Of a DNA stretch of 64,000 nt, positions 1 to 35,273 are shown one piece after another. Below the pieces are notes generated by a model, which saw nothing but the letters and a program-made list of their open reading frames with translations, was not told where the DNA came from and made no database searches. Numbering within the stretch: the stretch's first letter is position 1; the number at the start of each line of letters is the position of its first letter. The DNA is from an uncultured Verrucomicrobiae bacterium (lineage in GTDB: Bacteria > Verrucomicrobiota > Verrucomicrobiia > Chthoniobacterales > UBA10450). Position numbers and translations under genes: made by a program. The stretch covers positions 1,120,001 through 1,184,000 of the forward strand of contig CAVWPA010000003.1 of the NCBI GenBank assembly GCA_963756875.1, read 5' to 3'.

Positions 1-43
1 CGACGCCATCGCCGGGCATCCACGCAATTTTGTATTTAGCCAT
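1..43 (-). CDS. 5' end of an isocitrate/isopropylmalate dehydrogenase family protein (homoisocitrate dehydrogenase-like), runs off the window
   Basis: Reverse strand from ATG at 43 reads MAKYKIAWMPGDGV, the N-terminal PGDG motif of beta-decarboxylating dehydrogenases; lies downstream of homoaconitase. Confidence 0.8.
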   Translation of the reverse strand, partial: MAKYKIAWMPGDGV

Positions 44-52
44 AGAAAAGCG

Positions 53-80
53 ATTCTAGCGGTGCGCGTGACGACCGCAA
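53..80 (-). promoter_or_regulatory. Putative sigma70-type promoter of the dehydrogenase gene
   Basis: Minus strand TTGCGG-N16-TAGAAT, with the -10 box 9 nt upstream of the ATG. Confidence 0.45.
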
Positions 81-125
81 GCGAGAGCGAAAGATCCTGC
101 GGAACCGCGGATTACGCGGATCAAT

Positions 126-351
126 TCCGGGGAGCGCACGCGCCTCGCGTGCTGCGTTCGGCGCCTCGCCGAATGATCTGCATCAGAGATTGGGTCCGCT
201 AAATACGCCAAAGAACGCGAAAGATCGGAGGTCAGAGATCAACTTTCCCTTTTTAGCGTCGTTTCGCGTGTTTCGCGGATCGTCTTTTAGGTAAAAGTTC
301 GCGAAGGCGGGGCGCCTTCGCCAGCACGCGAGGGCGCGTGCGCTCCCCGGA
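126..351. repeat. MITE/REP-like element family A, copy 1 (contains a nested 9-nt-period inverted repeat)
   Basis: Ends TCCGGGGAGCGCACGCGCCTCGCGTGCTG (126-154) and CAGCACGCGAGGGCGCGTGCGCTCCCCGGA (322-351) are inverted repeats; related ends at 10181 and 35274. Confidence 0.8.
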
Positions 352-375
352 TGGCACGGCGACAGAGCGCCGTGG

Positions 376-2360
376 CTACAGCTTCGCCTTTGCGCGGAGG
401 CGGCTGCCCACGAGATTTTCGGCGCCGCCGGCAACGATCAATTCCTGGGCGGCGGGACTGAGCGGCGGGAAGGGGAACGATTTGCCGTCCACGGTCAGGA
501 TCGACTTGGCGTAGTCGATCGTGATTTCTGGTCCGACCGTGGTCGGCTTGCGGTCCTTGAGCGTTTCGCGCAGATACGCCACCAGCTCCGGGCATTCAAA
601 TACCACGAAGCCGTTGTTGAACGCGTTGCGTTTGTAGGTCTCGGAAAAGCTGGCGGCGATGACGCAGGGGATGCCTTTGAATTTCAATGCGGTCGCGGCC
701 TGCTCACGGCTCGAGCCGGTCCCAAAATTCAGGCCGCCCACCACGACGTCGCCTTTTTGATAAAGCGTGTTGAAGTTCGGATCGAAGTTTTCAAACGTGA
801 CCGCCGCCATCTGTTCGGGCGTCATGTCGTCGCGATACGTGTGTTTGCCGGCGTAAATGCCGTCGGTGTTCAAGTTATCCTGATCCACAAAAAGAACGCG
901 GCCGCGCACGCTCGGCGGGAAACCATCGATGATCTCCACCGATGACGAGGGCTTCGATTTGGCTTGTGCGCGTCGAACAGCGGTGCCGGCAGGGCGGTCG
1001 GCAAAATCTTTTGGAGCGCAAATGAATCCGGCCAGCGCACTGGCTGCGACGACTGCGGGCGAACCCAGATACACGAACGCATCTCGATCGCCCATGCGGC
1101 CCTTGAAATTGCGGTTGGTGGCGCTGATCGCGGTTTCACCCTTTTGCACCAGGCCGCGGCCCAGACCGATGCACGTCCCGCAACCGGGTGGCAACGGAAT
1201 CGCACCCGCGTCCACGAGTGCCTGCCAATCGCCCACCGATTGGGACTTGGATTGCACTTCGGCGCTCGCGGCCGCCAGATAAAACTCGACGCCATTGGCA
1301 ACGTGTCCGCCCTGCGCGCGCACAACGTCCGCGGCATCGTGCAAATCTTCGAAGCGCGCGTTCACGCACGACAACAAATAGGCTTTCTGAATGGACACAT
1401 GCTTGCGCTGCATTTCGGGAAGCGACACCATCGTTTTCACTTCGTTAGGTCCCGAGACATGCGGAACCACGGTCGCAAGATCGAGCTCCAGTTCGATGGC
1501 GTACTCCGCGTCCGCGTCGGCGGCGATCTCGTTCCGATCTTCCCACCACTCGTCGATGTCGGCGTTGGTATAACCGGACCGGCTCTTTCGGACCGCGCGT
1601 TCCCGGCCGATTGGGATTAGTGAACGTGGGGACGCGCGAACGCAGATAACGCACCGTGACCGCATCGAACGGGAACACGCCCGCGAGCGCGCCCCACTCG
1701 GTTGTCATGTTGGCGACGGTCATGCGCGCGTCCATGGAAAGGGTTGCCACGCCGTCGCCTGCAAATTCCACGGCATGATTGAGCACCTCATCCTTATTAA
1801 AGAGACCGCACAACGCGATGATGACGTCCTTGCCGGTAACGCCGGGCGAAAGTTTTCCTTTGAGCACCACCTTTGCCACTTTCGGGACCTGCCACCATGT
1901 GACGCCGGTGGCCCAAATACTCGCGGCATCGGTCCGCACTACCGGTGTCCCGAGCGCCGCGACGGCGCCGTATAAATTAGAGTGCGAATCGCTGGCCACC
2001 ACGAGCGCGCCGGGAACAACGTAGCCTTGTTCCACCATTACCTGGTGCGAGATACCCGTGCCGGCCGGGTAGAAATCGACTCCTTGTTCGGCCGCGAACT
2101 TCTGGATGTTCGCGTACTTCTCCAGATTCTTCGGAGACGTATTTTGAATGTCGTGATCGATGGCGAACACCGGTTGCCCCGGGTCCGCGATCGCGGTCGC
2201 GCCGATCTGCTTGAACTTCGGGATGACGGCGGCGGTGTTGTCGTGCGTCATCACATGCCGCGGGCGAATGGAAATAAAATCGCCCGAACGTACGATCGTC
2301 GCCGGGGGCGAGTCCATCAGCGTGCCGAGTCGCGATCTTTTCTACGAGCGTGAGTCCCAT
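376..2360 (-). pseudogene. lysF: Single-chain homoaconitate hydratase (fungal LYS4/LysF type), interrupted by two +1 frameshifts (about 2304-2308 and 1586-1588), possibly assembly errors
   Basis: MGLTLVEKI start at 2360; motifs MTHDN, DHDIQN, DSHSNLYG, ANMTTEWGAL, LSCVN, PGCGTCIG, NRNFKGRMG, NTDGIY and NFGTGSSREQA spread over three frames; deleting 2 nt gives a 660-aa ORF. Confidence 0.85.
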
Positions 2361-2427
2361 ATCAATTATTCTAAATAAAGATCGCAAGAACCATAGCCGT
2401 CAATTTGTTCTGATGCGAGGCACGCTG

Positions 2428-2490
2428 TTGTAGGGCAAGCGCGTCGCTTGCCAGATCAGAACAGAGGCAAGCGGAGCGCTCGCCCTACAA
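2428..2490. repeat. GTAG-type REP doublet
   Basis: TTGTAGGGC...GCCCTACAA inverted ends with internal GC hairpins. Confidence 0.75.
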
Positions 2491-2670
2491 TTTCATCGGC
2501 GGTGTGATTCGTGTGATTTGCGGGCAGGAATTATTTCTTGGCAGCACGTTTGCCGAAAAGCTTGGTGATATCGAAATCCGGGTGACCCGAGGGCCGGGAT
2601 GTTAGACATTATCCTACATCCTGTGTCTTTTGCTGGTTATTTGTTAGGGAATAGGTATATCATCATCACC

Positions 2671-2740
2671 AATCCGAATAGGCGAGCCGTTCCGGCGCAA
2701 GCGCAGCGGGGCAACCGCTGAATGACTTCTCTCATCGGTT
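2671..2740 (+). promoter_or_regulatory. Candidate structured 5' leader RNA upstream of the PEP-CTERM gene
   Basis: GAGCCGTTC/GAATGACTT stem enclosing GC-GCAA-GC and CAGCGG-GGCAA-CCGCTG hairpins, ending 15 nt before the ATG. Confidence 0.4.
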
Positions 2741-2755
2741 CGAAGGGAAACTACT

Positions 2756-3706
2756 ATGAATCTTACTATCAATATCCGACTAATTATTACTGGCTTGGCT
2801 GTCTGTATCGCGCTTTGGACAATCCCCGAACCCGCTCGTGGGCAAATCTATGTATCGAACGAGGGCAACACCACGATCGGCGAATACACAACATCGGGCG
2901 CAACGGTCAACAGCTCCTTTATTTCTTCGGGGCTGAATATCCCGAAATACATGGTGGTGTCCGGAGGGAATTTGTATGTGGTGAACAATGGCAACGGCAC
3001 GATTGGCGAATACGACGCCACCACCGGGGCAACGATCAACAGCTCCTTTATTTCGGGATTGAGTGGCCCGATAGGCATCGCGTTGTCCGGAGGGAATTTG
3101 TATGTGGTGAACAATGGCAACGGCGGCATCGGCGAATACAACGCCACCACCGGGGCGACAATCAACGCGTCGCTGGTCTCGGGATTGAATGACCCATACG
3201 ATGTCGCGGTATCGGGAGGAAATCTGTATGTCGACCTCAGTCAGCCCGGCACGATTGGCGAATACAACGCCACGACCGGGGCGACGATTAACGCCTCGCG
3301 GGTCTCGGGGTTGAGCAGCGGCCTGACAGGCATCGTGGTGTCCGGAGGGAATTTGTTTGTAGCGAATCAGCCCAACGGCACGATTGGCGAATACGACGCC
3401 GCGACCGGGGCGACGGTAAACGGCTCGCTGGTCTCGGGGTTGTCTGCCCCGGCTGGCCTCGCTTCGTTCGAAGGAAATCTGTATGTAGTCAACCAGAGCA
3501 TCAACACGATTGGCGAATACGACGGCACCACTGGGACGGCGATTAACGCCTCGTTGGTCTCGGGGTTGAATACTCCAACTGACGTCGAGGTAGTGCCTGA
3601 GCCCTCCACCTGGGCCGCCGGTCTCCTTACGGCAGGCACACTGTCGTGTACGATTATCTGGCGCAGGCGGGCCGGATGGCTCCGACGCAGAACACACGCT
3701 TGCTAA
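2756..3706 (+). CDS. PEP-CTERM surface protein with six ~42-aa NHL-like beta-propeller repeats
   Basis: Signal peptide; six NLYVxxxxxxTIGEYxATTGATINxSxxSGL repeats; C-terminal VPEPSTW + hydrophobic stretch + RRR. Confidence 0.9.
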   Translation: MNLTINIRLIITGLAVCIALWTIPEPARGQIYVSNEGNTTIGEYTTSGATVNSSFISSGLNIPKYMVVSGGNLYVVNNGNGTIGEYDATTGATINSSFISGLSGPIGIALSGGNLYVVNNGNGGIGEYNATTGATINASLVSGLNDPYDVAVSGGNLYVDLSQPGTIGEYNATTGATINASRVSGLSSGLTGIVVSGGNLFVANQPNGTIGEYDAATGATVNGSLVSGLSAPAGLASFEGNLYVVNQSINTIGEYDGTTGTAINASLVSGLNTPTDVEVVPEPSTWAAGLLTAGTLSCTIIWRRRAGWLRRRTHAC

Positions 3707-3793
3707 ACAAGCTGGCCAACAAGGCTACGAGGCGCTCGACTTGAAGAAGCGCAGCGCGCCGCGTCTCCCCAACCAGCGTGAGGCCCATATCGC

Positions 3794-4000
3794 TTATCCT
3801 ATGTTGATTTCCTTTCCGTAAAGACGTTTGAACAGTTGCTTTCGCTGCTCCGATTCCGATAACCCCCGTGGCAGCGACGCTTTTACCATTTCCCTCGCGC
3901 TATCGAACATTTGCGCGCCCATCACAAAGCGTTCTTCGCCGGAAAGAGCCATTAATTTTTCGCGCATCACTCGTTCGATGTTGGGCGCAGTATCGGTCAT
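3794..4000 (-). CDS. Small (68 aa) protein translationally coupled to the nucleotidyltransferase
   Basis: MTDTAPNIER...; ATG overlaps the upstream TGA (ATGA). Confidence 0.75.
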   Translation of the reverse strand: MTDTAPNIERVMREKLMALSGEERFVMGAQMFDSAREMVKASLPRGLSESEQRKQLFKRLYGKEINIG

Positions 4001-4533
4001 GCCAGGCACTCCTTCAGTAAGGTATCCAGGCCCAGTTCACGCGTCCAGCGTCGCAGATAGGGCGCGTCATATCCGGTGGCGAGCAGATTCCGGACATCGC
4101 CCAGTTGCAACTCGGAGTGCGAATCCTTCGCCCAGAAAAGCTTCGATATGATAAGGTCTTCCTTGCTCACGATAAATGTCGTGAAATCAAGAATTGAAAT
4201 CCTTTGTCTCCGTTCAAACTCCGCCTGGCGATACTCGTTTTTTTTGCGGAGGATGCAGTCCACTTTGATCACGCTTTGCTGGTGAATGACATTGAAAATC
4301 GACTCATTAGCGATCGATTCGCGAACATTGTCCTCGCTTACATAGTAGTCCGGCCGAAATAGGGCAGCTACGCGGGTAGCGTCTTCCGGTTCAATCGCGA
4401 TCACGACATCGATATCGCGGGTCATGCGCGGTTGCGCATAGTAGTTCATCGCCATGGAACCGGTGAGCATGTACGGGATGCCGGCCTCGTCGAATCTGTG
4501 AGAAATGTCGCGCACAATGTCGATCTCATTCAT
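3997..4533 (-). CDS. Pol-beta-superfamily nucleotidyltransferase-like protein
   Basis: GSMAM...PRMTRDIDVV (GS...DxD), VD, SKEDLIISK motifs; start taken at MNEIDIV. Confidence 0.8.
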   Translation of the reverse strand: MNEIDIVRDISHRFDEAGIPYMLTGSMAMNYYAQPRMTRDIDVVIAIEPEDATRVAALFRPDYYVSEDNVRESIANESIFNVIHQQSVIKVDCILRKKNEYRQAEFERRQRISILDFTTFIVSKEDLIISKLFWAKDSHSELQLGDVRNLLATGYDAPYLRRWTRELGLDTLLKECLA

Positions 4534-4561
4534 CGAACCGGCTGGGATCAGCGATCCCCGG

Positions 4562-5173
4562 CTACAGCTTCTTCGCCGCGCGTTTGCCGAGGAGTTTGGC
4601 GATATCGAAGTCCACGAAGTCGGCGTGATGAAAAATGATCGACTCGATGGAGCGTTCGACTTTGTCACCTTCATGGCTGTGCGTGGCGATGATGTGCATG
4701 ACTTCGCCGGGAATCCCGTGTTTGTACGCGAGCGCAACACCGCTGAACGGATGCCGCAGTTGTTGCCCGAGTTTTCCCTGGACTACTTTGCCGGATGCGT
4801 CCTTGTCGTACTCCAACGGCTTCCCCACGTCGGCCAGAAGCGCACCCGCGATGAGATAGTCTCGCTGGACCGGAATGCCGCAGCGGAACGATTTTTCGAG
4901 CACATCGGCGATGGCGATGCATTGCAACGCGCAGGAATTCAGATGCTCGACGAACGTCATGTCGATGTCGCCGGCGAGGAGCGTGAACTTGACCGCCCGC
5001 AGTTCGTCAAAGGTCCAACCTTTCCCACCGCAGCCGGTTGTAATGGCTTCGTTCCAGACCGCCGCCACTTTTTCGCGCAGCGACTTGTCGCTGATCTTTA
5101 GCAAGCTGGGGAAGAGGTCCGCGATTTCGTTAACGCCGTAATTGGTTCTTTGGGTCGTAGTCATAATGATCAC
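4562..5173 (-). CDS. HD/HDIG-superfamily protein with HD changed to AD
   Basis: FVEH...GALLADVGK...RHPFSG...HIIATHSHEG...HHAD. Confidence 0.85.
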   Translation of the reverse strand: MIIMTTTQRTNYGVNEIADLFPSLLKISDKSLREKVAAVWNEAITTGCGGKGWTFDELRAVKFTLLAGDIDMTFVEHLNSCALQCIAIADVLEKSFRCGIPVQRDYLIAGALLADVGKPLEYDKDASGKVVQGKLGQQLRHPFSGVALAYKHGIPGEVMHIIATHSHEGDKVERSIESIIFHHADFVDFDIAKLLGKRAAKKL

Positions 5174-5463
5174 GCGGCTTTCCGCCGATATTTTTGAGGC
5201 TTTGAAGAAGTTCGTTCTATTATTTTTCTAGCTTCCAGATCGAGTTTAACCGTTTCTGCATACCAACTGATACTTCCTGAAAATCTGTTCTTCAGGCTCT
5301 TGTTAACCTTTTCGGATAATTGGGTGTGGGTAAGCTGCTTATTTTGCAAGGCGGACAAGATGGCTTTCTTAAGCGTCTCGTATTTCCCCTTGTCGATATT
5401 TTTCCCGCTCTTACCCAATGGGTGTTTGGTGAGTATTTTTTCTTCTGTCATTTGCCTCTCCAT
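5170..5463 (-). CDS. Small basic winged-helix-like protein (DUF6958-like)
   Basis: HPLGKSG...KYE...GSISWYAETVKLDLEARKIIER; stop overlaps the HD gene start. Confidence 0.7.
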   Translation of the reverse strand: MERQMTEEKILTKHPLGKSGKNIDKGKYETLKKAILSALQNKQLTHTQLSEKVNKSLKNRFSGSISWYAETVKLDLEARKIIERTSSKPQKYRRKAA

Positions 5464-5479
5464 TCATGATTGACGACTA

Positions 5480-6448
5480 ATGAACACGAATCACACGAAT
5501 AGCGGAATGACTTTTTGCCGATGGATTGGGGTTTCGATGGTATGTGCAGGAACGATACTTGCGCGGCCGCCGGGCGGCCCAGGCGGGCCTCCCAACAATA
5601 GCCGTGTGAAAATGGATCTTCCATCGCGGGTGTCGATCCGCACCGAAGGCGAACGCCGGATCATCGAGAGCAATGGGATTCCCGACCATGAAACGGGGAC
5701 GTTTCCCGGCCCGGGAAATCCCAATGCGATCATGGCGCAAAATTATCACTTTGAAACCACAACGCATCCCACGAAAGCGGCCCATCCCATGTCGATCCGG
5801 AGGTGGCTTTTTGGCGTCGCCATCGACGGCGTGGTGTTCGATCCCGGGACTGCGGATTACTGGCGCAACGACCGCAATTCCGTCTGGAACGTGGAAGGAA
5901 TCATCGACGGACGGCGCACGTTGGGGATCGATTGGAGCGACGCGCACGTGCAACCAAACGGCGCCTATCATTACCACGGCGTCCCCTGGGGCATCCTGCA
6001 AAAACATCATGCGGAAAAAAAGATGTTCCTGGTTGGGTGGGCGGCGGACGGGTTTCCGATCTACGGACCGTACGCCTACAAGGATCCGAATAATGCTTCG
6101 AGTCCGGTGGTTGAAATGAAATCGTCGTACCGGCTGAAGAGCGGAATGAGGCCCGCGGGGAACGAGGGACCGGGAGGACGTTACGACGGAACGTATACCG
6201 GCGATTACGAATATGTAGCAGGGGCGGGAGATTTGGATGAATGCAACGGACGCACGGGAGTGACGCCGGAGTTTCCAGGAGGGACGTATTATTATGTGGT
6301 GACCGAAACCTTCCCGATCGTGTCCCGTTATTTCCGTGGGACACCCGACCCGAGTTTTCGGCATCCGTTCGATCCCGCGCGCGGACGCGGCCCGGGCGGA
6401 CCAGGAGCACCGGGCGGTCGGCCGCCACCGCCATTCCGTAACCACTAA
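5480..6448 (+). CDS. YHYH-domain secreted protein (start may be 5507)
   Basis: SNGIPDH, GVAIDGV, AHVQPNGAYHYHG, GWAADGFPIYG, GDLDECNGR motifs; Pro/Gly-rich ends. Confidence 0.85.
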   Translation: MNTNHTNSGMTFCRWIGVSMVCAGTILARPPGGPGGPPNNSRVKMDLPSRVSIRTEGERRIIESNGIPDHETGTFPGPGNPNAIMAQNYHFETTTHPTKAAHPMSIRRWLFGVAIDGVVFDPGTADYWRNDRNSVWNVEGIIDGRRTLGIDWSDAHVQPNGAYHYHGVPWGILQKHHAEKKMFLVGWAADGFPIYGPYAYKDPNNASSPVVEMKSSYRLKSGMRPAGNEGPGGRYDGTYTGDYEYVAGAGDLDECNGRTGVTPEFPGGTYYYVVTETFPIVSRYFRGTPDPSFRHPFDPARGRGPGGPGAPGGRPPPPFRNH

Positions 6449-6871
6449 TAAACACGAATGGACACGAATGACGGAAAGCTGGTGGCCAAAGAAGAGGTGT
6501 TTCGCATTGTCGGCTGTGCGATCGAGGTTCTTAACGCGCTTGGGCACGGCTTGGTTGAAAAGCCATACGAAAATGCGTTAGCGGTAGAGTTTGGTCTGCA
6601 AAATATGCCTTTTCGGCAGCAGCCTTCGTTCGACGTTTTTTATAAGGAGCATAAGGTAGGTCTCTTCATTCCCGACTTAATCGCATTCGACACCGTTGTG
6701 GTGGACACAAAGGTGATTGATCGAATCACCGATCATGAGCGTGGATTGATGCTGAACTACCTTCGAATCACGAATCTGCGCGTTGGAGTTGTCCTGAATT
6801 TCAAACGTCCCAAACTAGAGTGGGAGAGAATTATTTTATGAATTTGTGTTCATTCGTGTCCATTCGTGGTT
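6440..6871. repeat. Imperfect 30-bp inverted repeats of 10-nt period bracketing GxxExxY
   Basis: AACCACTAATAAACACGAATGGACACGAAT (6440-6469) versus ATTTGTGTTCATTCGTGTCCATTCGTGGTT (6842-6871); a third, direct copy at 5476-5500. Confidence 0.8.
6458..6841 (+). CDS. GxxExxY protein (PD-(D/E)XK nuclease-like fold)
   Basis: LGHGLVEKPYENAL (GxxExxY), PDLI...DTK, NYLRIT...GVVLNF. Confidence 0.9.
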   Translation: MDTNDGKLVAKEEVFRIVGCAIEVLNALGHGLVEKPYENALAVEFGLQNMPFRQQPSFDVFYKEHKVGLFIPDLIAFDTVVVDTKVIDRITDHERGLMLNYLRITNLRVGVVLNFKRPKLEWERIIL

Positions 6872-8574
6872 AGAGATCTAGGCGGCGGGCCGTCGTAGCC
6901 ATGCTTGACCGGATCGATTCGCCGCATCGGTTTCTCGCGGGTTTGTTCTTCGATCACGTGTGCCACAAGTCCGGGAGTTCGCGCGATCATGAAGATTCCG
7001 TTGAACGCCGCCGGGTCCATTCCCAGATCGGCAAGGATGGCGCCGATCGCGCCGTCTACGTTGATCGGCAGCGCTTTTTTCGCATCGGCGAACGATTTCT
7101 CGACGGCTCGCGCCGCTTTCATGTGCGCTCCGTCGACGCCGGCCTTCCGCGCCAGCTCGAACAAACGTGCCGTGCGCGGGTCCCTGGTGTGATAGCGATG
7201 GCCAAAACCCGGCATGCGGTCGCCGCTCTCTCTCATCTCCGCCAGAGTGCGTGTAGCCGCTTCATCCATTGAAATGGATTCGCACGTGGCGCGGTCCGCG
7301 ATCTTTTTTAGTTGTCGGGCGCAATCTTCGATCGCGCCGCCATGATGACGATTGATCGACATGATTCCGGCGGCGACCGACGCGCTGAGCGACGCGCCGG
7401 TGGACGCAACCGTTCGCGCGGCCAACGCGCTCGGCGGCGTCGCGCCATGATCGATCGACGATACCAGGATCGCATCCATCAATTGTCCGATCGCGGGCGA
7501 CGGCAGTTCGCCGGTCAAAATTAAATACACCGCTGCGCCAAATGAAACGCGTCCCATCAGATCGGCGATGTCATATCCGCGCACGGCGACCCGGTTCGGT
7601 TCGATTTGCGTTACTGCGGTGTTCCAGACCGCATTCTTGTCAGTTTCGCTCATAAGACTCTGTCCTTTCATTTGCTTGAGAATTTCAACCACGGCATCCG
7701 GCAGGTCGCCGAACGCATCGACTACGGTGGCGCCTGCTTCGCGCAGCGCTTTCACTTTGCCAGCGTGCGTGCCCCGACCGCCTTCAATGATCGCTCCCGC
7801 GTGACTGAAACGCGTGCCTTCGCGTGCCGCTTTACCGCCGATATACGCAATCACCGGCTTCGTCATTTTTCGATCGCGAATCAGTTGCGCCAGTTCCTCT
7901 TCCTGTGACGAACCAATTTCGCCAAAGATGACGACGGCTTCGGTGAGCGGGTCGGCTTCAAACATCAGAGCCGCGTCGGGGATACGAATTCCAAGAACGG
8001 CGTCGCCGCCAATGTGCGCGATGGTTGAAATGCGCACGCCGGCTTGCCCGAGATAGTAGCCGGTGCTCGAAGCCATCCCGCCGGATCGACTGATCACGCC
8101 AACACCTTTCGGAATGCCCGGCTTGAACCATTGCTTCGCACTTTCGGCGCGACCGCCGATCATGCCGGCCACGGCCTTGCCCGGGCTCAACACTCCAAGC
8201 GTGTTCGGTCCCAGAAAAATCGCGCCATTCGCTTTGGCCGCGGCGGCGATCTCCATGGCGTCCCATACTGGAACGCGATCGGGCACGAGCACGGTCAGCT
8301 TGATTCCCGCGTCGATGGCGGAAATTGCCGCTTCCTTCACACCCGCGGCGGGCACAAAGATTACGGAGATGTCGATTTGGCCGAGAGCCTTTACCGCGTC
8401 CTGCGGCGTATTGAACACGGGCACGCCGAAGACGGCCTGTCCGCCTTTACCCGGTGTGACGCCGGCGACCACGTTGGTTCCGTACTCGCGCATGAGGCGC
8501 GTGCGCGCCCGGCCTTCGCGGCCAGTGATTCCCTGCACCAGGACGCGCTTGGTTTCGTCGATTAAAATTGCCAT
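6850..8574 (-). CDS. Succinyl/citryl-CoA ligase alpha subunit fused to a citryl-CoA lyase domain (AclA-like architecture)
   Basis: N-half QGITG, GVTPGKGG, GPNTLG, SRSG, FGEIG and phospho-His SHAGAII; C-half DHGATPPS, HGGA, PGFGHRYH-DPR, NVDGAIG. Confidence 0.9.
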   Translation of the reverse strand: MAILIDETKRVLVQGITGREGRARTRLMREYGTNVVAGVTPGKGGQAVFGVPVFNTPQDAVKALGQIDISVIFVPAAGVKEAAISAIDAGIKLTVLVPDRVPVWDAMEIAAAAKANGAIFLGPNTLGVLSPGKAVAGMIGGRAESAKQWFKPGIPKGVGVISRSGGMASSTGYYLGQAGVRISTIAHIGGDAVLGIRIPDAALMFEADPLTEAVVIFGEIGSSQEEELAQLIRDRKMTKPVIAYIGGKAAREGTRFSHAGAIIEGGRGTHAGKVKALREAGATVVDAFGDLPDAVVEILKQMKGQSLMSETDKNAVWNTAVTQIEPNRVAVRGYDIADLMGRVSFGAAVYLILTGELPSPAIGQLMDAILVSSIDHGATPPSALAARTVASTGASLSASVAAGIMSINRHHGGAIEDCARQLKKIADRATCESISMDEAATRTLAEMRESGDRMPGFGHRYHTRDPRTARLFELARKAGVDGAHMKAARAVEKSFADAKKALPINVDGAIGAILADLGMDPAAFNGIFMIARTPGLVAHVIEEQTREKPMRRIDPVKHGYDGPPPRSLTTNGHE

Positions 8575-10143
8575 TTAGCGCGTGCCTTCCGCTGTTTGAC
8601 GACCCCGAAAGCTTTCGGGGCCAATCAACTTGTCGAGACTTGGAATCTCAAGTTCGAGATAAAATCCGTCGACTCCAGCAAGCCGACACTCAACATCGCA
8701 TGCGAGCAACTCGGAATCTTTTGTAGCGAACTCTTCGCTCGGCAATGCAGCCGCAGGCACGCCTTTCCGATCCACGATCAACCCACCCGAGTGGGTCTCG
8801 ACGGCCGCGCGAATTTCGTTCCACTTCGAGGCATCGATCCATACCTGGCCGCCTTTTACTGAAAATTTGGTAGCCGATGAATTTTTGACGAACTTCGGCA
8901 TACGCGGAGCGCGTGGTTTCCATTTCGTGCCGTCTGCGCTGGCGACGAGATCCGCAAAACGCTCGGCGATGAAGGCTGGAGTGTCGGTTTTGCGATAGCC
9001 CTCAAGCGGCGCGCGAAGTAGTTTCGACATTCGCTGCAAAATATCCACGGCGCGATCTTCGGCGTTGCCGCCTAACCGAATTACCGCGGGAATATTCAGG
9101 TCAAGTTCCCAAAACGCCTTGGCCAGTCCGTAAGCGGACCAATATTGTTCCTGGCTCGCGACGCCCGAGCCCGACCCGAAATATCCGACGAGATCAGGTT
9201 GAGCCAGAATGATTCGGCTGGCGCGATACACTTTGGACGCGGATGGATTGCCGCTGGTGTCGGTGAAATTGGCAATGGTGAATCCCGCGTTCACGATGGC
9301 GTCCATCGACATCATCGACCCGCCACCGCCGGCGCCGTGAAACCCGGCAAGCCCTTTGGAACCCTTTGGGCATTCCGTCGCCAACTGCGCAAAATAAAAT
9401 GTGCCGCGATGATCGCTTTGTTCCACGGCGTAAGCCACGCGCTCAAGAGCCGTGGGCGGATGATCGAATTCTCTGGCAATTTCAATTCCAAGATCAGGAT
9501 GTCGCGCCACCGCGTAATCGTCGATCGTGATCCGACAATCGGCGGCGACGAACTCGTCATTTTTCGTCAGCACCAGCGGGTTGATCTCCAGCGACCTGGC
9601 TTCAACGCTACGGGCGGCGGCAAATAATTTTCGGATTGAATCGGCCAGTTTGGCCGCTTGCGCCGTGGAAAGTTTGCACGAAGCGACAGTTTCGCTGACG
9701 GCCGAATCGAGTGGGCCGCTATTCACGTCGCAGGGAATACGCCGCGTCGAAGCTGCGCGTTCTTCGATTCCAGTGCCTCCTCCGCCGGCAAAAATAATTA
9801 CCGGAGCGCGGGCGGCATCATCGATCGCTAACGAAAGAAAGAATTCCCGGTCGATGTCGAGCTTCTCTTCCACAAGAACGGCATCGACCGGAAACTGTCC
9901 AACCTTCATCGCCAGCATCCGCGCGGCGTGATCGCGAATGTCGTTTGGCTTTTTGGCGAACGCGACCCCGCCGATGCCGGCGCGTCCGGTGGTCCAGGCC
10001 TGAATCTTGACGACTACTTCGCCGCCGAGTTCCTTCGCCGCCGTCACGGCGTCATCAGCGGCAAAAGCCGCCCGGCCGCGCGGAATCTTGAATCCGCTCC
10101 GCGCAAGAATGGCTTTGCCTTGATATTCGTGAAGTCGGGCCAT
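8575..10143 (-). CDS. Divergent ATP-grasp acyl-CoA ligase beta subunit (SucC/CcsA-like) with a C-terminal extension
   Basis: MARLHEYQGK, VKIQ...GRAGIGGV, LVEE, EINPLV, AADC, GAGGG, ANFTD, IRLGG; ATG at 10143. Confidence 0.85.
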   Translation of the reverse strand: MARLHEYQGKAILARSGFKIPRGRAAFAADDAVTAAKELGGEVVVKIQAWTTGRAGIGGVAFAKKPNDIRDHAARMLAMKVGQFPVDAVLVEEKLDIDREFFLSLAIDDAARAPVIIFAGGGGTGIEERAASTRRIPCDVNSGPLDSAVSETVASCKLSTAQAAKLADSIRKLFAAARSVEARSLEINPLVLTKNDEFVAADCRITIDDYAVARHPDLGIEIAREFDHPPTALERVAYAVEQSDHRGTFYFAQLATECPKGSKGLAGFHGAGGGGSMMSMDAIVNAGFTIANFTDTSGNPSASKVYRASRIILAQPDLVGYFGSGSGVASQEQYWSAYGLAKAFWELDLNIPAVIRLGGNAEDRAVDILQRMSKLLRAPLEGYRKTDTPAFIAERFADLVASADGTKWKPRAPRMPKFVKNSSATKFSVKGGQVWIDASKWNEIRAAVETHSGGLIVDRKGVPAAALPSEEFATKDSELLACDVECRLAGVDGFYLELEIPSLDKLIGPESFRGRQTAEGTR

Positions 10144-10180
10144 GATTGGAAGGTATTTGGATGATCCTAGCGGAATTTTC

Positions 10181-10329
10181 GGGTAGCGCACGCGTCTCGC
10201 GTGCTGGCGAGCGCGTCCTCGCGATCGCGAACTTTTTCCAGTAATCATTATTGGTCACTTCAGTCCAATCAAAGAAAAGACTGTTTCGGCGAGACGCCAA
10301 AACCAGCACGCGAGACGCGTGCGCTACCC
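10181..10329. repeat. MITE/REP-like element family A, copy 2
   Basis: Perfect 27-bp inverted repeat GGGTAGCGCACGCGTCTCGCGTGCTGG. Confidence 0.85.
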
Positions 10330-10409
10330 AGACACCTGACCTTGCGGCTTGATCTTATTGATCGCGGATGGCGGGCGTAATAGTGTCGATCCAACCGAAG
10401 GCGCGCTGC

Positions 10410-11585
10410 ATGACCTCAACCTCGCTCGATTATTACGGCATTGAAGAGCTTTTGAGCGACGAAGAACGCGCGGCGCGCGATCGGGCGCGGCGTTTTGTGC
10501 AGGATGAAGTAATGGATCAAGTCGTGCCGTATCATCGGGCGGGCAAGTTTCCCGAACATCTTACGCCGCGCATGGGCGCGTTACGTTTCTATGCGCCGTA
10601 CTTAAAAGAACACGGCTGCGCGGGGCTGAGCTACACGGCCTACGGCTTGATCATGCAGGAGCTGGAACGAGCTGACTCTGGCCTTCGTTCACTGGCATCG
10701 GTGCAGGGCGCGCTTGTCATCCACGCAATTCATTCCTTCGGCACGCCGGAACAGCACGCGCAGTGGCTGCCGGGACTGGTGTCGGGCGAACGCGTTGGTT
10801 GTTTCGCGCTGACCGAACACGGACACGGCTCGGACCCTGGCGGGATGGAAACCCAGGCCAAACGCGATGGCGATCATTATGTTTTGAACGGCAGTAAGTG
10901 CTGGATCGGTAACGCATCCATCGCGGACGTGAAAGTCGTGTGGGCGAAGGACGACGACGGACGCGTGGGCGGATTCATTGTGGAGAAGGATGCTCCCGGA
11001 TTCCGCGGGCAGGACATCGAGGGAAAGTTCAGCTTGCGCATGTCGCGCACGTCGGAGTGCTGGTTCGAAAACTGTCGCATACCAGCGGAAAGCCGGCTGC
11101 CGAAGGCGAAGGGACTGCGCGCACCGCTGTCGTGTCTTTCACAGGCGCGGGTGGGCGTGGCGTGGGGAGTGATTGGCGCGGCCATCGATTGTTACGAAAC
11201 GGCGCTGGCGTATGCGAAATCGAGAGAACAGTTCGGCCGTCCAATTGCCGGGTTTCAACTGGTACAGGAAAAACTTGTCTGGATGGTGCAGGAGATTACC
11301 AAGGCGCAATTGTTAGCGCTCCGTCTTACTCGCATGATGGAAAAAGGCACGGCACGTCCCGCCCAGATTTCGCTGGCGAAGCGGAACAACGTGTGGATGG
11401 CGCTGGAATGCGCGCGAAAGGCGCGCGACATCCTAGGCGCCGCGGGTATCACGGATCGCTATTCGGTGATTCGCCACCTCATGAACCTTGAGAGTGTCTA
11501 CACGTATGAAGGGACGCACGACGTCCACGCGTTGGTGATCGGCCACGACATCACAGGGCTCGACGCCTTTGGCGGCTCTTCATGA
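10410..11585 (+). CDS. Acyl-CoA dehydrogenase, glutaryl-CoA dehydrogenase-like
   Basis: ELERADSGLRS, GCFALTE...GSDP, LNGSKCWI, QFGRPIAGFQLVQ, C-terminal NLESVYTYEGTHD. Confidence 0.85.
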   Translation: MTSTSLDYYGIEELLSDEERAARDRARRFVQDEVMDQVVPYHRAGKFPEHLTPRMGALRFYAPYLKEHGCAGLSYTAYGLIMQELERADSGLRSLASVQGALVIHAIHSFGTPEQHAQWLPGLVSGERVGCFALTEHGHGSDPGGMETQAKRDGDHYVLNGSKCWIGNASIADVKVVWAKDDDGRVGGFIVEKDAPGFRGQDIEGKFSLRMSRTSECWFENCRIPAESRLPKAKGLRAPLSCLSQARVGVAWGVIGAAIDCYETALAYAKSREQFGRPIAGFQLVQEKLVWMVQEITKAQLLALRLTRMMEKGTARPAQISLAKRNNVWMALECARKARDILGAAGITDRYSVIRHLMNLESVYTYEGTHDVHALVIGHDITGLDAFGGSS

Positions 11586-11598
11586 TAGACTGCGCGAT

Positions 11599-12111
11599 AT
11601 GAGTCACATGGATTGGGACGCGATCAGCGCAATCTCGCAAATGATTGGCTCGGTTGCGGTAGTTCTCTCCGTCCTTTATCTCGCCTTTCAAGTGCATCAA
11701 AGCACGCGCGTAGCAAAGTTGGCCGCGCAGGATGCTGCGGCAACGTCACTCCGTGAGGTGACGAGACCGTTTGCTGAGAATGCCGATCTGGCTCGGGTTT
11801 GGCGAATAGGGCTTGAGGATTTGCAATCGTTGTCGGCGGAGGAACAGGCGCGTTTCTTCCATTCCACTTATCAATTTCTCAAGGCATTCGAAACGATTCA
11901 CTTTCACCATATCCATGGAGTGATGGACGAGCAGATCTGGCAAGGATGGTCCGGCCTTCTTCAGCACTACATTGCGTCTCCCGGGATGGATCATTACTGG
12001 CAGCTGCGTCACGATCTTTTCTCAGTTCGGTTTCAGCAGTTTATCCATTCGCTCGAGCGTCCGACTGAGCGCCGCACGGTTGGTAATCTGTTGGGGCAAG
12101 AGAATCGGTGA
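11599..12111 (+). CDS. Hypothetical protein with N-terminal membrane anchor
   Basis: MDWDAISAISQMIGSVAVVLSVLYLAFQ hydrophobic N-terminus. Confidence 0.7.
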   Translation: MSHMDWDAISAISQMIGSVAVVLSVLYLAFQVHQSTRVAKLAAQDAAATSLREVTRPFAENADLARVWRIGLEDLQSLSAEEQARFFHSTYQFLKAFETIHFHHIHGVMDEQIWQGWSGLLQHYIASPGMDHYWQLRHDLFSVRFQQFIHSLERPTERRTVGNLLGQENR

Positions 12112-12182
12112 GTCAGGAAAAGGTTTGTCGAACTCCTTCCCATATCACAGCGCTGGATGCCTTCGGCGGCTGACGATTGAAT

Positions 12183-12255
12183 TGTAGCCGCGGCGCTCTG
12201 TCGCCGCGTTGAGAATAAGCTGAGGATTACGCCTCGACACAGCGAGGCGGCTACA
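12183..12255. repeat. GTAG-type REP doublet
   Basis: TGTAGCCGC...GGCGGCTACA. Confidence 0.7.
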
Positions 12256-12301
12256 GGAGTTGGATGACAGCGCGGGAAGATTCGTTAAGTTATTTGGAGC
12301 T

Positions 12302-16138: not shown

Positions 16139-19100
16139 CTAGCTATTCTTGGCCGGATTCCGATTCGGGAACGGGGGAACCGGGGGCAACTCGTAACCTT
16201 TGGTCTTCATTTCCTTCTGAATCTCCTGAATCGCCCGGTCGAGCTGCTGATCTTCTCCGCGAAATTCTTTCGCCGGATCGTTGTCCACCATGATATCGGG
16301 GTCAACTCCATGACCTTCGATGATCCATTCCTTCCCTTTTTTCGAATACGGCGCGAATTCCGGCTTGAAGAATTGCCCGCCATCGGTCAACGGCAACGGA
16401 TTGCGAATGCCGATGACGCCGCCCCAGGTCCGTTTACCGATCAGTTTGCCCAGGCCGAGCGACTTGAAGCGGTAAGGAAAGATGTCGCCATCGGACGCTG
16501 AAAATTCGTCGATCAAGGCAACCATCGGGCCAATGAATGTCTGTGGCGGGTTCGTTTGAGGCACGCCGTTTCGCGCGATTTCCACCATTATAAGCGCGCG
16601 GCGCAACCGCTCGATGACTAGCGGCGAAACAAAGCCGCCGCCGTTGCCGCGTACGTCGACGATGAGCCCTTTCTTGTGGATTTGCGGAAAATAAAGCTTG
16701 GTGAATTCGTCCAGGCCCGGCTGTCCCATATCGGGGATGTGAACATAGCCGACCTCGCCGCCGGTCTTTTTATTTACTTCGTCGATATTTTTGCGCACCC
16801 AGGCCAGGTAGTAGAGGGGCGATTCATCATCGATCGGCACAACTGTAACGTCGCGTGCGCCCGCCTCGGTCGGCTTGGAATTCACACGCAGGATTACCTG
16901 CTTGCCGGCTGTATCGATGAGCGCGTCGTATATATTAGGCAACGTGGAAACCGGGATCCCATTGATCGCCAGGATGTAGTCGCCCACCTTCACGTTTACG
17001 CCGATTGCCGTAAGAGGAGAACGCGTATGTTCGTCCCAGTTTTCTCCCGGTAAAATCCGATCGATCCGGTAAGCGCGAGTGGATTGGTCGCGGGAGAATT
17101 CCGCCCCGAGCAATCCGAGTTTGACCCGCGGCGCTTTGGGTCGTTCGCCGCCGACGACATAAGTGTGGCTGTTGTTCAGTTCGCCGATCAATTCGCCCAG
17201 TAAATAGGTGAGATCGTTGCGATGATTCACGAAGGGAAGCAGCGCGGCGTATTTGTCCCGCATTGCCTTCCAATCGACGCCATTCATGGTCGGCGAATAG
17301 AAGAAATCGCGCATTTGCCGCCAGGCCTCGAAATAGATCTGCTTCCATTCGGCGTGCCGATCGAGCTGCATATCGAGGCCGGAGAGCTTGAGCTCGTGAT
17401 CTTTTGTCTCGAGTTTGTCCTTGGGCAAATCGATTATGGAATAATCCTTTTTGATCTTTAGCAGCATCTTCTTGCCGTCAGCTGTGATCTCGTAGCCGTT
17501 CACGTCGCCGAGGACGGCTTCTTTCCTGTCCTCCAGGTTGTACACGCAAAGATGCTGTTTCTCTTCCTGGCCGAATAGGTCTTCCTGGTTTTCACCAGTC
17601 TCGTCTCCCACGGTGTGGCGCAGATAGAAGATCCGGTCGTCGACCATCCTGATGTCCTTGTAATTTCCCGGTGTGATTTCCAGGCCCACGATCCGGTCTT
17701 GAACGCCGTCGGTGTCCACCTTAACGACTACGGGCTTCTTTTGTTCGGTCTCTTTCTTTTCCGTTTTTTTCTTATCAGCCGTCGCCTTTTTCTCTCCCGT
17801 CTTCTTCTCCGTTTTCTGTTCCTCGGCTTTTTTCTCTTGTTCCTTCTTCTTTTCCGCCTTGCCGACTTCATCGCTGCGCGGCCCCAGCGGCGACTCGGTC
17901 TCTTTAGCGAGCGTGACGAGATAGACACGTTCCATGTCGCGATAAACGTTCTCAAATTCCTCTTCGCCGAACGTCGGTTTGAAATCGCGCGCCGAACTCA
18001 ATAGCAAATATTTCCCATCATCACTAAAGACGGGATTGCTTGCGTCGTACCAGGTGTCGGTCACCGGGACCTGTTGTTTGGTGCCAGTCGAGTAGAGATA
18101 AACCCTGTTCAGATTGTTTTCCTCAGGGCGCGCCCATGTGATCCACTGACTGTCCGGCGACCATGCGTAGGCCTGGATCTCGCCGTATTTGTCGTGATCG
18201 ACATCGGTCACGGCTTTGGATGCAATGTCCACATAACGCAGCCGTTGCAACCGATCGCTCCAAAGCAGCTTTTTGCTGTCCGGCGACCAGACCGCATAAT
18301 AATAGTAGGTGTTCGCTCCGCTGGTCACCTGCTGCGGCTCGCCCTTGCCGTCCTGCGACCGGATGTATAATTCATTCTCGCCGGTCGCGTCCGAATTGTA
18401 GGCAATCCATTTTCCGTCCGGCGACCAGATTGCGTCCCGTTCGTGGGCATTTGATGTCCTGGTCAGGTCGCGGGGAGTGCCATGTTTTGCGGGAACGGAA
18501 AAAAGATCTCCCCGGGCTACCACAATCACACGCTCGCCGTCCGGTGCCGGATGAACCGATTCGATATGCTTTGACGCATCGACCAATTCCGAGCGTCCGG
18601 AGGCAAAATCCTCTTCGATCTTGATCGGCAGTACGGTTGTTTGTCCATTGGCCAGGTCATAACGCCAGATGTAGCCGGCTTGTTCGAACACGATGGAGTC
18701 TTTACCGATCGAGGGAAACTTGATGTCGAAGTCCTTGAAGGTGGTGAGCTGCTTCGTGGCTTTGTTCTTGAGATCGATCGAGAACAGGTTCATTCGCCCA
18801 TCGCGGTCGGAGAGAAAGTAGACGTGGTTATCGGGGCCCCACATCGGGCAGATGTCCTGGGCGGGATCATTTGTGAGATTTTCAGTGGCAGCCGTTTTGA
18901 AATCGTAGATCCATACGTCGTCGGTCATGCCGCCGCGATAATGCTTCCAGGTACGGAACTCGCGGAAAACGCGGTTGAACGCCATCTTGGAATCATCGGG
19001 CGAGAACGAAACAAAGCCTCCGCGCGGCACGGGAAGCTGCTGCGGCAGGTCGCTGTCCATGCCGACCGTATAAAGCTGGCCGTTGAAATCGTTGAACGAT

Positions 19101-19579: not shown

Positions 19580-19729
19580 TGTGCCGGATGCAAGATCGAA
19601 ATTATCGTGTGCCACACGTTAGATGTCAGACATCCATCGTTCGATTGTCGTTTAATCCCTTTATGGTCTCAAGCCTCCAGCGAATCAGGAGCGTGAAATC
19701 CGGAAAGCGATTATAGTGTTTTTCCCTGG

Positions 19730-26649: not shown

Positions 26650-27405
26650 TCAGCCCATGAAGAAGCCGCCGTTCACGTTCAAGACGTGGCCGGTGATGTA
26701 GCTTGCCATGGGCGAGGTGAGAAAAAGCGCGGCATCGACGATCTCGTTTACGTCGCCGAGCCGGCCGAGCGGGATCTGCTTGATGAAATTCTGCGTTACT
26801 TCGTCCGGCATACCCTTGCTCATACCGACGTCGATGAATCCGGGCGCGATCGCGTTCACGGTGATGTTTTGGCGCGCAAACTCGCGCGCCGACACTTTGG
26901 TCAGGGCGATGATCGCCGCTTTGCTCGATGAATAATTTGCCTGGCCGAACAGGCCCATTTGTCCGCTGACCGAGGAGAGGTTCACGATCCGTCCTCCACC
27001 GCGCAGTATCGCGCCCGCTTTTTGGGTCACGTTGAATGTGCCGATGAGATTTACGCGCACCACGCTTTCGAATTCCTCCAGTGACATCTTTTTGATCGTG
27101 CGATCGCGGATGACGCCCGAGTTGTTGACGAGAATATCGAGGCCGCCGTGCCGCTCCTGGATTTGTTTCATCATCGATTCGACTTGCGCGGGCTGCGTCA
27201 CATCGCACTCGATGACCAGCGGATCCTTCAACTCTTTCGCCACGCGCTCGGCGTCCGCTTTGTTTTGGTTTTGCGGGTCGGCGACGTAATTGACGACACA
27301 CTGGGCGCCGCGCTGGTTGAATGCCTTGATTATTTCCGCACCGATGCCGCGTGAGCTTCCGGTGACGAGGACGATCTTGCCGCTAAAATCGAGAGGGTTG
27401 GTCAT
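26650..27405 (-). CDS. SDR oxidoreductase (FabG/acetoacetyl-CoA reductase-like)
   Basis: TGSSRGIG, NNSG, GQANYSSSK (YxxxK), NAIAPGFI. Confidence 0.92.
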   Translation of the reverse strand: MTNPLDFSGKIVLVTGSSRGIGAEIIKAFNQRGAQCVVNYVADPQNQNKADAERVAKELKDPLVIECDVTQPAQVESMMKQIQERHGGLDILVNNSGVIRDRTIKKMSLEEFESVVRVNLIGTFNVTQKAGAILRGGGRIVNLSSVSGQMGLFGQANYSSSKAAIIALTKVSAREFARQNITVNAIAPGFIDVGMSKGMPDEVTQNFIKQIPLGRLGDVNEIVDAALFLTSPMASYITGHVLNVNGGFFMG

Positions 27406-27534
27406 TTTGCGATTTAACGATTTAACGATTCGCTGATTCAAATCATTTTAAAGCTAAATCACCAAATTGGTGGATTACCCAATAGCTTCGTGATTGCCGG
27501 CTAATAGAACGTGGTAGGATTTTTGGCGTTTTTC

Positions 27535-27604: not shown

Positions 27605-27613
27605 AGATTCTGA

Positions 27614-35161: not shown

Positions 35162-35273
35162 GTGCAGAAAATTTAACCACGATTGCGCAGTAAACAGGAA
35201 CAAATTCGCTGGCGAATTGAAATTCAGTCACGGAGGAAGTTTGCGGCGCTCGTCGGCTTTGAGCAAGCGGATT

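Follow-up and report, generated by a model that had tools for sequence, protein, structure and literature searches.

The stretch of DNA analysed here, hereafter the window, comprises 64,000 nucleotides (G000:C3:1120001-1184000) from the assembly of an uncultured Verrucomicrobiae bacterium (G000, a member of the Ca. Udaeobacter family; 2.69 Mb, 3 contigs, 87.6% complete). Its first genes encode a two-subunit CoA ligase whose alpha subunit is fused to a citryl-CoA-lyase domain, followed on the minus strand by a variant HD-domain protein, a Lys4-type homoaconitase and the start of a homoisocitrate-dehydrogenase-like gene. Together with an MmgE/PrpD-like (de)hydratase encoded outside the window, these constitute a six-gene module (beta, alpha-lyase, variant HD, homoaconitase, dehydrogenase and PrpD-like), which we tentatively read as a route for the ATP-dependent cleavage of homocitrate.

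Gene layout of the module

The two ligase subunits are encoded back to back. The TAA of the beta gene directly abuts the ATG of the alpha open reading frame (ORF) 6850-8574, with the stop-start junction read at 8575/8574, and the domain scores agree with a fusion of alpha and citryl-CoA lyase; both features had been claimed in an earlier note made from the DNA letters alone. A longer beta ORF of 557 residues starts within a repeat, and the proteins of relatives begin at MARLHEYQ, so the 522-residue form was taken. The HD(AD) protein described in the same note is likewise present, ORF 4562-5173 reading 'LLADVGK' with AD in place of the usual HD dyad. This variant HD protein is a conserved member of the module; it gave no PDB sequence match, and Atlas returned 'HD domain' clusters alone.

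For the remaining partners, the earlier description was right in kind and needs amending in detail. The hydratase is of the LYS4 homoaconitase type, judged by its intact orthologue, which passes TIGR00139, but the copy in the window carries two 1-base insertions and appears to be a pseudogene. The dehydrogenase is of the beta-decarboxylating type, but only its first 14 codons fall within the window, and it contains two more 1-base insertions. The module genes do lie co-oriented on the minus strand, but not as an unbroken run, three plus-strand genes standing between them (Table 1).

Sequence features of the ligase/lyase

Residues 1-301 of alpha are SucD-like, with the CoA-binding and phosphohistidine parts, and residues 311-570 form a citryl-CoA lyase of the citrate-synthase fold. 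Alpha scores 268.6 bits against NCBIfam PRK06224.1-6 (cut-off 212), which places it among the citryl-CoA lyases, whereas its 262.9 bits against NCBIfam SucD stay below the cut-off of 336. Beta reaches 197.6 bits against NCBIfam SucC, below the cut-off of 370, and shares 29-30% identity with E. coli SucC, in line with the earlier view that it is clearly unlike the canonical subunit. With both equivalog cut-offs failed, the pair falls outside SucCD and is not the relatives' single housekeeping copy.

The kinship of the ligase parts was judged by PDB bit scores as a proxy for a phylogeny, with E. coli SucCD as the sole named reference sequences. The alpha ligase part scored 253 bits against succinyl-CoA synthetase (SCS) alpha (2yv2), compared with 179 for two-domain AclA and 162 for CcsB; the loop containing its His can be aligned to that of SCS alpha, and it retains the phosphohistidine motif. 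The best match for beta was Thermus SCS beta (3ufx_B, 160 bits), with CcsA at 94 and AclB (6hxj_A) at 87 bits. At 23.9 bits, beta also falls short of the gathering score (26.8) for the citrate-binding domain of ATP-citrate lyase (ACL; PF16114). Because both ligase parts are nearer SCS and the ACL citrate-binding domain is failed, the fusion looks independent of ACL.

The lyase domain is closest to Hydrogenobacter thermophilus CCL in the PDB (6hxp, 202 bits). It was aligned to E. coli GltA, with residue numbers verified on the GltA sequence. GltA H229, H264, H305 and R314 are kept as H376, H411, H459 and R467, and D362, F383, R387 and R407 as D507, F528, R532 and R552; judged by these residues, the domain is predicted to be catalytically competent.

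In beta, an ATP-grasp and ligase body resembling that of SucC (residues 1-~371) is followed by a C-terminal tail of ~150 residues (~372-522; window 8575-9030). The tail aligns with that of a homologue from genome G365 (L127:6318-7862), which bears two ferredoxin-like Cys clusters; 2 of these Cys are held here, and the Udaeobacter tail is probably a cluster-less remnant. G365 also provides the closest split ligase homologue (alpha 54%, beta 38% identical), and in the alignment the 'substrate region' of beta is unlike between the Udaeobacter module and the G365 context. The G365 locus (L127, G365:C39:1-11095), from another verrucomicrobial family, encodes glutamate mutase S and E, methylaspartate ammonia-lyase, a long SucC-like beta, a SucD-like alpha and a CitE-type lyase, a compact methylaspartate-type glutamate route with an ATP-dependent ligase.

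Conservation in relatives

The best 80 genome loci come from Chthoniobacterales / Ca. Udaeobacter metagenome-assembled genomes with 85-93% alpha identity, except for two labelled Nitrospirota and Deltaproteobacteria. At L067, L083, L049 and L040 the module is compact and co-oriented in the order beta-alpha-HD-homoaconitase-dehydrogenase, and in three of these the PrpD-like gene comes last. The proteins of relatives measure 511 (beta), 569-574 (alpha), ~200 (HD), 658-668 (homoaconitase), 384-391 (dehydrogenase) and 477-480 residues (PrpD-like). Where at least 6 kb were available, the genes downstream of alpha included HD in 39/52 genome and 21/25 metagenome loci, homoaconitase in 36/52 and 21/25, dehydrogenase in 34/52 and 13/25, and the PrpD-like gene in 17/52 and 8/25. 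A neighbourhood survey of this kind had been suggested in the earlier note, and the linkage to homoaconitase and dehydrogenase is kept. Three metagenome loci of 68-69% GC also retain the module, with alpha 73-75% and beta 61-63% identical. At one of them, L131, all six genes are compact and the flanks are unrelated; the flank ORFs of L131 and L133 are mostly antisense artefacts, the recognisable ones being a MobA-like gene and a P-type ATPase.

The intact homoaconitase orthologue (L067) scores 733.9 bits against TIGR00139 (cut-off 529.9). The intact dehydrogenase orthologue has homoisocitrate dehydrogenases as its best models (AksF2, 329.5 bits) and is closer to homoisocitrate/isocitrate dehydrogenases than to LeuB (193 bits). 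Both Pfam domains expected of its family are found in the PrpD-like protein (PF03972, 212.7 bits; PF19305, 141.8 bits), which lies outside the PrpD equivalogs (101.7 bits, cut-off 950). Convergent to the module in relatives are genes for L-lysine 6-transaminase (LAT; 568.7 bits, cut-off 520.8) and L-piperidine-6-carboxylate dehydrogenase (Pcd; 780.3 bits, cut-off 730), and the PrpD-like gene adjoins Pcd-LAT even where the other module genes lie elsewhere.

Among the accompanying genes, DUF6958 recurs in 21/80 relatives' loci, in some of them between alpha and HD, and PDDEXK_3 in 6/80; YHYH was found in 0/80 and the NHL/PEP-CTERM gene in none of the 80. A minus-strand ORF at 5477-6547 was rejected as a gene, being an antisense artefact. 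Copies of a palindromic, REP-like repeat (~50-60 nt; some 70-100 matches genome-wide) lie at window 120-180, 290-360 and 10150-10330, where they form inverted pairs between the homoaconitase and dehydrogenase genes and ahead of the beta gene; soil-metagenome contigs cover the repeat very deeply. Farther along, window 26650-30615 encodes an SDR and an IcmF-like enzyme that is divided into a B12-binding::MeaB fusion and an acyl-CoA mutase large subunit; relatives have this set immediately upstream of the genes for thiolase and acyl-CoA dehydrogenase that diverge from the beta gene. Window 16139-19615 encodes a tricorn-protease-like protein of 1158 residues with PD40, PDZ_Tricorn and S41 domains.

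Table 1. Genes of the module and its surroundings. Positions are those of the window; negative numbers lie outside it.
Feature	Position	Strand	Evidence and remarks
Homoisocitrate/isocitrate-dehydrogenase-like gene	43..1	-	First 14 codons in window; extends to -1113
Fungal Lys4-type homoaconitase with its large and small aconitase-family domains fused	376..~2369	-	Apparent pseudogene
NHL-repeat / PEP-CTERM protein	2756..3706	+	Pfam; lineage-specific insert, outside module
Weak nucleotidyltransferase-like ORF	3997-4536	-	Between HD gene and homoaconitase
Variant HD-domain protein	4562..5173	-	Pfam HD, 30.5 bits
DUF6958 protein, 97 residues	5170..5463	-	Pfam PF22278, 90.6 bits
YHYH protein	5480-6448	+	Pfam YHYH, 227 bits; insert between alpha and rest of module
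PDDEXK_3 nuclease-like protein	6458-6841	+	Pfam, 108 bits; insert between alpha and rest of module
Ligase alpha::citryl-CoA-lyase fusion, 574 residues	6850..8574	-	Pfam CoA_binding, Ligase_CoA, Citrate_synt
Ligase beta subunit, 522 residues	8575..10143	-	Pfam ATP-grasp_2, 127.5 bits; intact, single frame
Family-I CoA transferase	33800-35203	-	
Second MmgE/PrpD gene	35272-36873	+	Strong-scoring
Citrate-synthase-family gene	37805-38956	+	
MmgE/PrpD-like gene	-7979..-6496		Sixth module partner, outside window; split over two frames
L-piperidine-6-carboxylate dehydrogenase (Pcd)	-9766..-8219		Intact in G000
L-lysine 6-transaminase (LAT)	-11225..-9837		Intact in G000

Distribution and co-occurrence

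Two samples were surveyed, 401 genomes of the phylum and 121 genomes of the Ca. Udaeobacter family. The family genomes are kin, and their counts are descriptive, with no statistical test; the unpublished G402, G407 and G414 enter only into the tallies. Across the phylum, the full-length fused alpha occurs in 2 genomes, G000 and G048, and Lys4-type homoaconitase (E <= 1e-90) is confined to the same two. Within the family, 53 genomes carry the fused alpha (full-length in 46, partial in 7) and 47 carry homoaconitase; both are present in 45 genomes, alpha alone in 8, homoaconitase alone in 2 and neither in 66. The 8 alpha-only genomes are mostly incomplete, or have the genes at contig ends. Alpha and homoaconitase occur together even where they lie 48 kb-2 Mb apart or on separate contigs (G440, G438, G417, G458, G474, G463, G513 and G510). 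The PrpD-like gene is found in 54/121 genomes, 46 with alpha and 8 without, while 7 genomes have alpha only and 60 have neither; presence of the module is patchy within genera. Because the genes form a compact co-oriented set in relatives and co-occur genome-wide even when unlinked, a functional tie of the ligase/lyase to homoaconitase and dehydrogenase is well supported, as the earlier note had supposed, and the operon of the 68-69% GC lineage points the same way.

The PrpD-like position is filled differently in some module-lacking relatives. In G300, G406 and G427, a conserved ORF of 465-466 residues follows Pcd. Loci of relatives that show it after Pcd-LAT are L221:10760-12160, L220:924-2321 and L222:12144-13544. 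This 466-residue gene is present in 35/121 family genomes, with 0 overlap with either the PrpD-like gene (54) or homoaconitase; two genomes, G404 and G422, combine it with alpha, and both are without the PrpD-like gene and homoaconitase. The protein has no Pfam match and no PDB sequence match, and its Atlas clusters are 'hypothetical' only. Its AlphaFold model is poor (pLDDT 50.8) and gave no Foldseek match at E <= 0.001; the weak Foldseek rows are mostly glyoxalase/dioxygenase-fold proteins, DUF1338-type entries included, and may serve as a lead only.

Metabolic context

Because a canonical SucD exists separately in relatives, the housekeeping SucCD is a different enzyme from the beta/alpha pair. 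A second match is given by 44/46 genomes with a full-length fused alpha, and the matches listed are of the ~290-320-residue SucD type at 42-46% identity; the fused copy alone was found in G000 and G409. The search for separate sucCD genes proposed in the earlier note thus found canonical SucD in relatives and none in G000. In the 87.6% complete G000 assembly, canonical sucC/sucD were not found, the other homologue being a 926-residue NDP-forming acyl-CoA synthetase, and the ligase/lyase is the only SucCD-type enzyme found. A test for deleted sucCD through synteny with the sucCD region of G048 showed that the flanks are not conserved in G000. The assembly does contain sucA, sucB, sdhA, two citrate synthases, an AcnA-type aconitase and an Icd-type isocitrate dehydrogenase, and the family-I CoA transferase of the window could handle succinyl-CoA. 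With the second MmgE/PrpD gene and the citrate-synthase-family gene, window 33800-38956 looks like a methylcitrate-type cluster apart from the module. The module is redundant neither with the canonical tricarboxylic acid (TCA) cycle enzymes nor with these separate MmgE/PrpD and citrate-synthase-family genes.

As the earlier note had stated, no homocitrate-synthase-type gene lies within the window. The sole HMGL-like match in G000 is a fragmented citramalate-synthase-like gene (C1:~10600-12300), broken into at least 3 pieces. Five complete module-bearing genomes showed no evident gene of the homocitrate/isopropylmalate-synthase type, and each has one weak HMGL-like match (81-107 bits); the match whose start was read is presumably an HMG-CoA lyase. 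LysW was found in 0/5 of these genomes, with controls firing, and the saccharopine-dehydrogenase family gave marginal hits only, its control firing in 13/14 genomes. The diaminopimelate decarboxylase gene lysA scores above cut-off in 92/121 family genomes, with or without the module. Checks for a synthase and for diaminopimelate-type lysine genes had been suggested in the earlier note. As LAT is found in 106/121 genomes, the making of 2-aminoadipate from lysine is a family-wide trait and the module is an accessory.

Frameshifted partner genes in this genome

Compared with four relatives, the homoaconitase gene contains 1-base insertions near 2299 and 1586, and the dehydrogenase gene near window -135 and -806; none of the four mapped insertions lies within a long homopolymer. 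The homoaconitase pieces left by the two frameshifts score 356 and 374 bits against TIGR00139, and the MmgE/PrpD-like gene is split over two frames. For a frame control, 626 ORFs from 51 relatives' loci were placed on G000, yielding 59 target groups (~50 distinct genes). Only 4 of the 59 groups were multi-frame, and all of these were homoaconitase, dehydrogenase or the PrpD-like gene, while alpha, beta, HD, acyl-CoA dehydrogenase, thiolase, LAT and Pcd were each single-frame. Public sequence records at the four frameshift sites were relatives' contigs at 90-99% likeness, none of which bridged the sites with the window's own sequence. Homoaconitase, dehydrogenase and the PrpD-like gene are thus apparent pseudogenes in G000, though their frameshifts may be assembly errors, and because they are frameshifted the route is probably inactive in this genome. 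Elsewhere in G000, lysA and the citramalate-synthase-like gene are also split, which speaks against module-specific decay. The lysA gene (G000:C3:309052-310339) lies in two frames here and is intact in most relatives; from this split, G000 may be a lysine auxotroph.

A proposed homocitrate-cleaving route

We propose, with somewhat less than even confidence, that beta and alpha make up an ADP-forming CoA ligase of SCS descent that gained its lyase domain independently, and that the module cleaves homocitrate with ATP and CoA, taking lysine-derived 2-oxoadipate to 2-oxoglutarate and acetyl-CoA. The chemistry of the ligase/lyase would be ACL-like: a 2-substituted malate, ATP and CoA would give an acyl-CoA, which would be split into acetyl-CoA and a 2-oxoacid. 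As substrates, the C7 'homo' compounds, taken towards cleavage, give the most coherent series. Lysine would be converted to 2-aminoadipate by LAT and Pcd (both assigned by family membership), and 2-aminoadipate to 2-oxoadipate by an aminotransferase. The dehydrogenase, working in reverse, would join 2-oxoadipate and CO2 to homoisocitrate; homoaconitase would turn this into cis-homoaconitate, and the PrpD-like protein would convert cis-homoaconitate to homocitrate. The ligase would then form homocitryl-CoA, and the lyase domain would release acetyl-CoA and 2-oxoglutarate. Homocitrate as substrate, the direction and the role given to each hydratase are what would best fit the architecture, catalytic residues, synteny and co-occurrence, together with the lack of a detectable conventional synthase.

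The catabolic direction is favoured because lysA is common, LysW and a synthase were not found in five module-bearing genomes, LAT is family-wide and the genes show a ligase-lyase arrangement; known analogues that work in cleavage likewise have an ATP-dependent ligase and a lyase instead of a synthase. In work on fungi, a second enzyme is reported to be needed for the homocitrate/cis-homoaconitate half-reaction, and by analogy the PrpD-like protein could supply it. The earlier note had offered two roles for the ligase/lyase. Replacement of homocitrate synthase for lysine synthesis is a poor fit to the lysA and LysW counts and to the lysine-catabolic neighbours; catabolism of C7 tricarboxylates fits better than synthesis.

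Several observations weigh against this proposal. Every oxaloacetate-binding residue of citrate synthase is unchanged in the lyase domain, with no sequence sign of 2-oxoglutarate, and no citrate-synthase-fold enzyme is known to use 2-oxoglutarate. The dehydrogenase stays under every curated cut-off (540 for AksF2), and its reverse reaction uses reducing power and CO2, at a lower energy yield than the glutaryl-CoA route. Because the split homologue in G365 lies among the glutamate mutase, methylaspartase and CitE-type lyase genes described above, the ligase subfamily seems to activate various 2-substituted malates. LAT is near-universal in the family, and its adjacency to the module may reflect ancestry alone. 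Co-occurrence is imperfect (8+2 exceptions with homoaconitase, 7+8 with the PrpD-like gene) among genomes that are kin and not independent, and some metagenome loci have the 466-residue gene beside beta-alpha, which makes them exceptions to the either/or pattern. In G000 itself, the ligase/lyase is intact though its partners are broken, which suggests that it has, or gained, a use of its own.

An unlikely but appreciable alternative is a new kind of ACL, the module then being a second citrate/isocitrate/2-oxoglutarate branch that would run either reductively, from 2-oxoglutarate to acetyl-CoA and oxaloacetate, or as an ATP-conserving citrate synthase. The lyase domain argues for citrate, since it passes the citryl-CoA lyase cut-off with H. 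thermophilus Ccl nearest and keeps all oxaloacetate-binding residues, and the architecture parallels AclA/AclB. Such a branch would, however, duplicate the AcnA-type aconitase, Icd-type isocitrate dehydrogenase and two citrate synthases of G000; the hydratase passes the homoaconitase model and no aconitase model, beta scores too low for the ACL citrate-binding domain and resembles SCS beta more than AclB or CcsA, and the neighbours are lysine-catabolic. We regard as quite unlikely the use of some other 2-substituted malate (citramalate, 2-methylcitrate or a longer homologue) in a different 2-oxoacid shortening or elongation. The cluster around the nearest split homologue is of the methylaspartate/citramalyl-CoA type, the two contexts have unlike 'substrate regions' in beta, and a PrpD-family protein with an aconitase-family one is the enzyme pair of the methylcitrate cycle. 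Yet the window has separate strong MmgE/PrpD and citrate-synthase-family genes (35272-38956), the hydratase passes the homoaconitase model, and the dehydrogenase is nearer homoisocitrate/isocitrate dehydrogenases than LeuB, which argues for a carboxylated side chain.

Operation in the synthetic direction, from acetyl-CoA and 2-oxoglutarate through homocitryl-CoA to homocitrate with a gain of ATP and on to 2-oxoadipate/2-aminoadipate, seems slightly less likely again. It would account for module-bearing genomes in which no conventional synthase is evident, and ACL-type enzymes are reportedly reversible, as Möller is said to have described for Desulfobacter postgatei in 1987. But lysA is widespread with or without the module (92/121), LysW was not found (0/5) and saccharopine-dehydrogenase-family hits are marginal, while LAT and Pcd would already make 2-aminoadipate from lysine, and no consumer of extra 2-aminoadipate is visible. 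There is, finally, a slight chance that the pair is the organism's own SCS with a decorative domain among unrelated neighbours. No other SucC/SucD homologue was found in G000 despite its sucA, sucB and sdhA, and the alpha ligase domain is closest to true SCS alpha with the phosphohistidine motif kept. This is countered by the second match in 44/46 relatives, a separate canonical SucD among those listed, the absence of the pair in over half of the family and in the remaining 399/401 phylum genomes, failure of both SucCD cut-offs and co-occurrence with homoaconitase; moreover, the assembly is incomplete, and the CoA transferase could take over succinyl-CoA. The homocitrate-cleaving route is the reading we prefer.

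Relation to known systems

CCS/CCL and ACL are reportedly the subject of work by Aoshima in 2004 and Verstraete in 2019, homoaconitase half-reactions of work by Fazius in 2012 and Jia in 2006, and HglS of work by Thompson in 2019/2020. CcsAB with Ccl of H. thermophilus (PDB 6hxq, 6hxp) shares with the module, as far as sequence tells, a two-step ATP/CoA cleavage in which an SCS-like ligase works together with a truncated lyase of the citrate-synthase fold. However, the lyase is fused to alpha here and a separate protein there, and for the ligase subunits true SCS is a better match (253 and 160 bits) than CcsB/CcsA (162 and 94), which leaves them outside CcsAB. Beta has its extra tail of ~150 residues, and the partners are homoaconitase-type, with no reductive-TCA genes. 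AclAB/ACLY has the same domain order, an ATP-grasp beta and a CoA-binding and phosphohistidine alpha with C-terminal lyase; alpha agrees with this family, whereas beta does not, failing the citrate-binding domain and scoring 87 bits against AclB. The His equivalent to GltA H264 is kept here and is Phe in P0199 and P0211, two representatives labelled ACL-like on their architecture only.

With the upper alpha-aminoadipate pathway of fungi and Thermus, the module has in common a Lys4-type homoaconitase and a homoisocitrate-dehydrogenase-like enzyme. It differs in that no DRE-TIM homocitrate synthase and no lower pathway were found (LysW 0/5), and the direction proposed here would be reversed and ATP-driven. 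The methylcitrate cycle (PrpC, PrpD, aconitase) likewise combines a citrate-synthase-fold enzyme, an MmgE/PrpD protein and an aconitase-family hydratase, but the PrpD-like protein here is far below the PrpD equivalogs (101.7 versus 950), a dehydrogenase stands in place of methylisocitrate lyase, and separate strong MmgE/PrpD and citrate-synthase-family genes exist in the window. Malate thiokinase with malyl-CoA lyase or citramalyl-CoA lyase also uses an ADP-forming ligase followed by cleavage to acetyl-CoA and a 2-oxoacid; there the difference is the lyase, which in the module is of the citrate-synthase fold and fused to the ligase, while the nearest split homologue, in G365, pairs with a CitE-type lyase.

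Literature searches on homocitryl-CoA or homocitrate lyase, on citryl-CoA with homoaconitase, and on homoisocitrate with lysine catabolism and 2-oxoadipate returned nothing relevant, and no paper was found that joins citryl-CoA lyase to Udaeobacter. The matched passages of two Ca. Udaeobacter genome papers (10.1101/053942, PMC7343977) hold no mention of the module. In such passages, Brewer et al. (preprint, 10.1101/053942) describe branched-chain, aromatic, Arg and His synthesis as missing and no ATP-citrate lyase, and Willms et al. (PMC7343977) list no lysine pathway and 'leucine 1/3 missing'.

Implications

Public records call the beta and alpha genes succinyl-CoA synthetase, an annotation that needs correction, and the homoaconitase and dehydrogenase genes are open to confusion with those of leucine synthesis. 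In G000, gene decay of the module appears to be under way, with three partners broken and the ligase/lyase retained. If homocitrate is the substrate, the enzyme would be the first ATP-dependent homocitrate lyase and the first citrate-synthase-fold enzyme working with 2-oxoglutarate, and the module would represent an undescribed lysine/2-oxoadipate route in a highly abundant group of soil bacteria. A broader scenario, which we consider possible but doubtful, is that globally abundant soil Verrucomicrobia degrade lysine by a reversed upper alpha-aminoadipate pathway with an independently evolved 'ATP-homocitrate lyase', the 466-residue protein substituting in sister lineages. If true, the route would conserve carbon and parallel the arm of the reductive TCA cycle that cleaves citrate.

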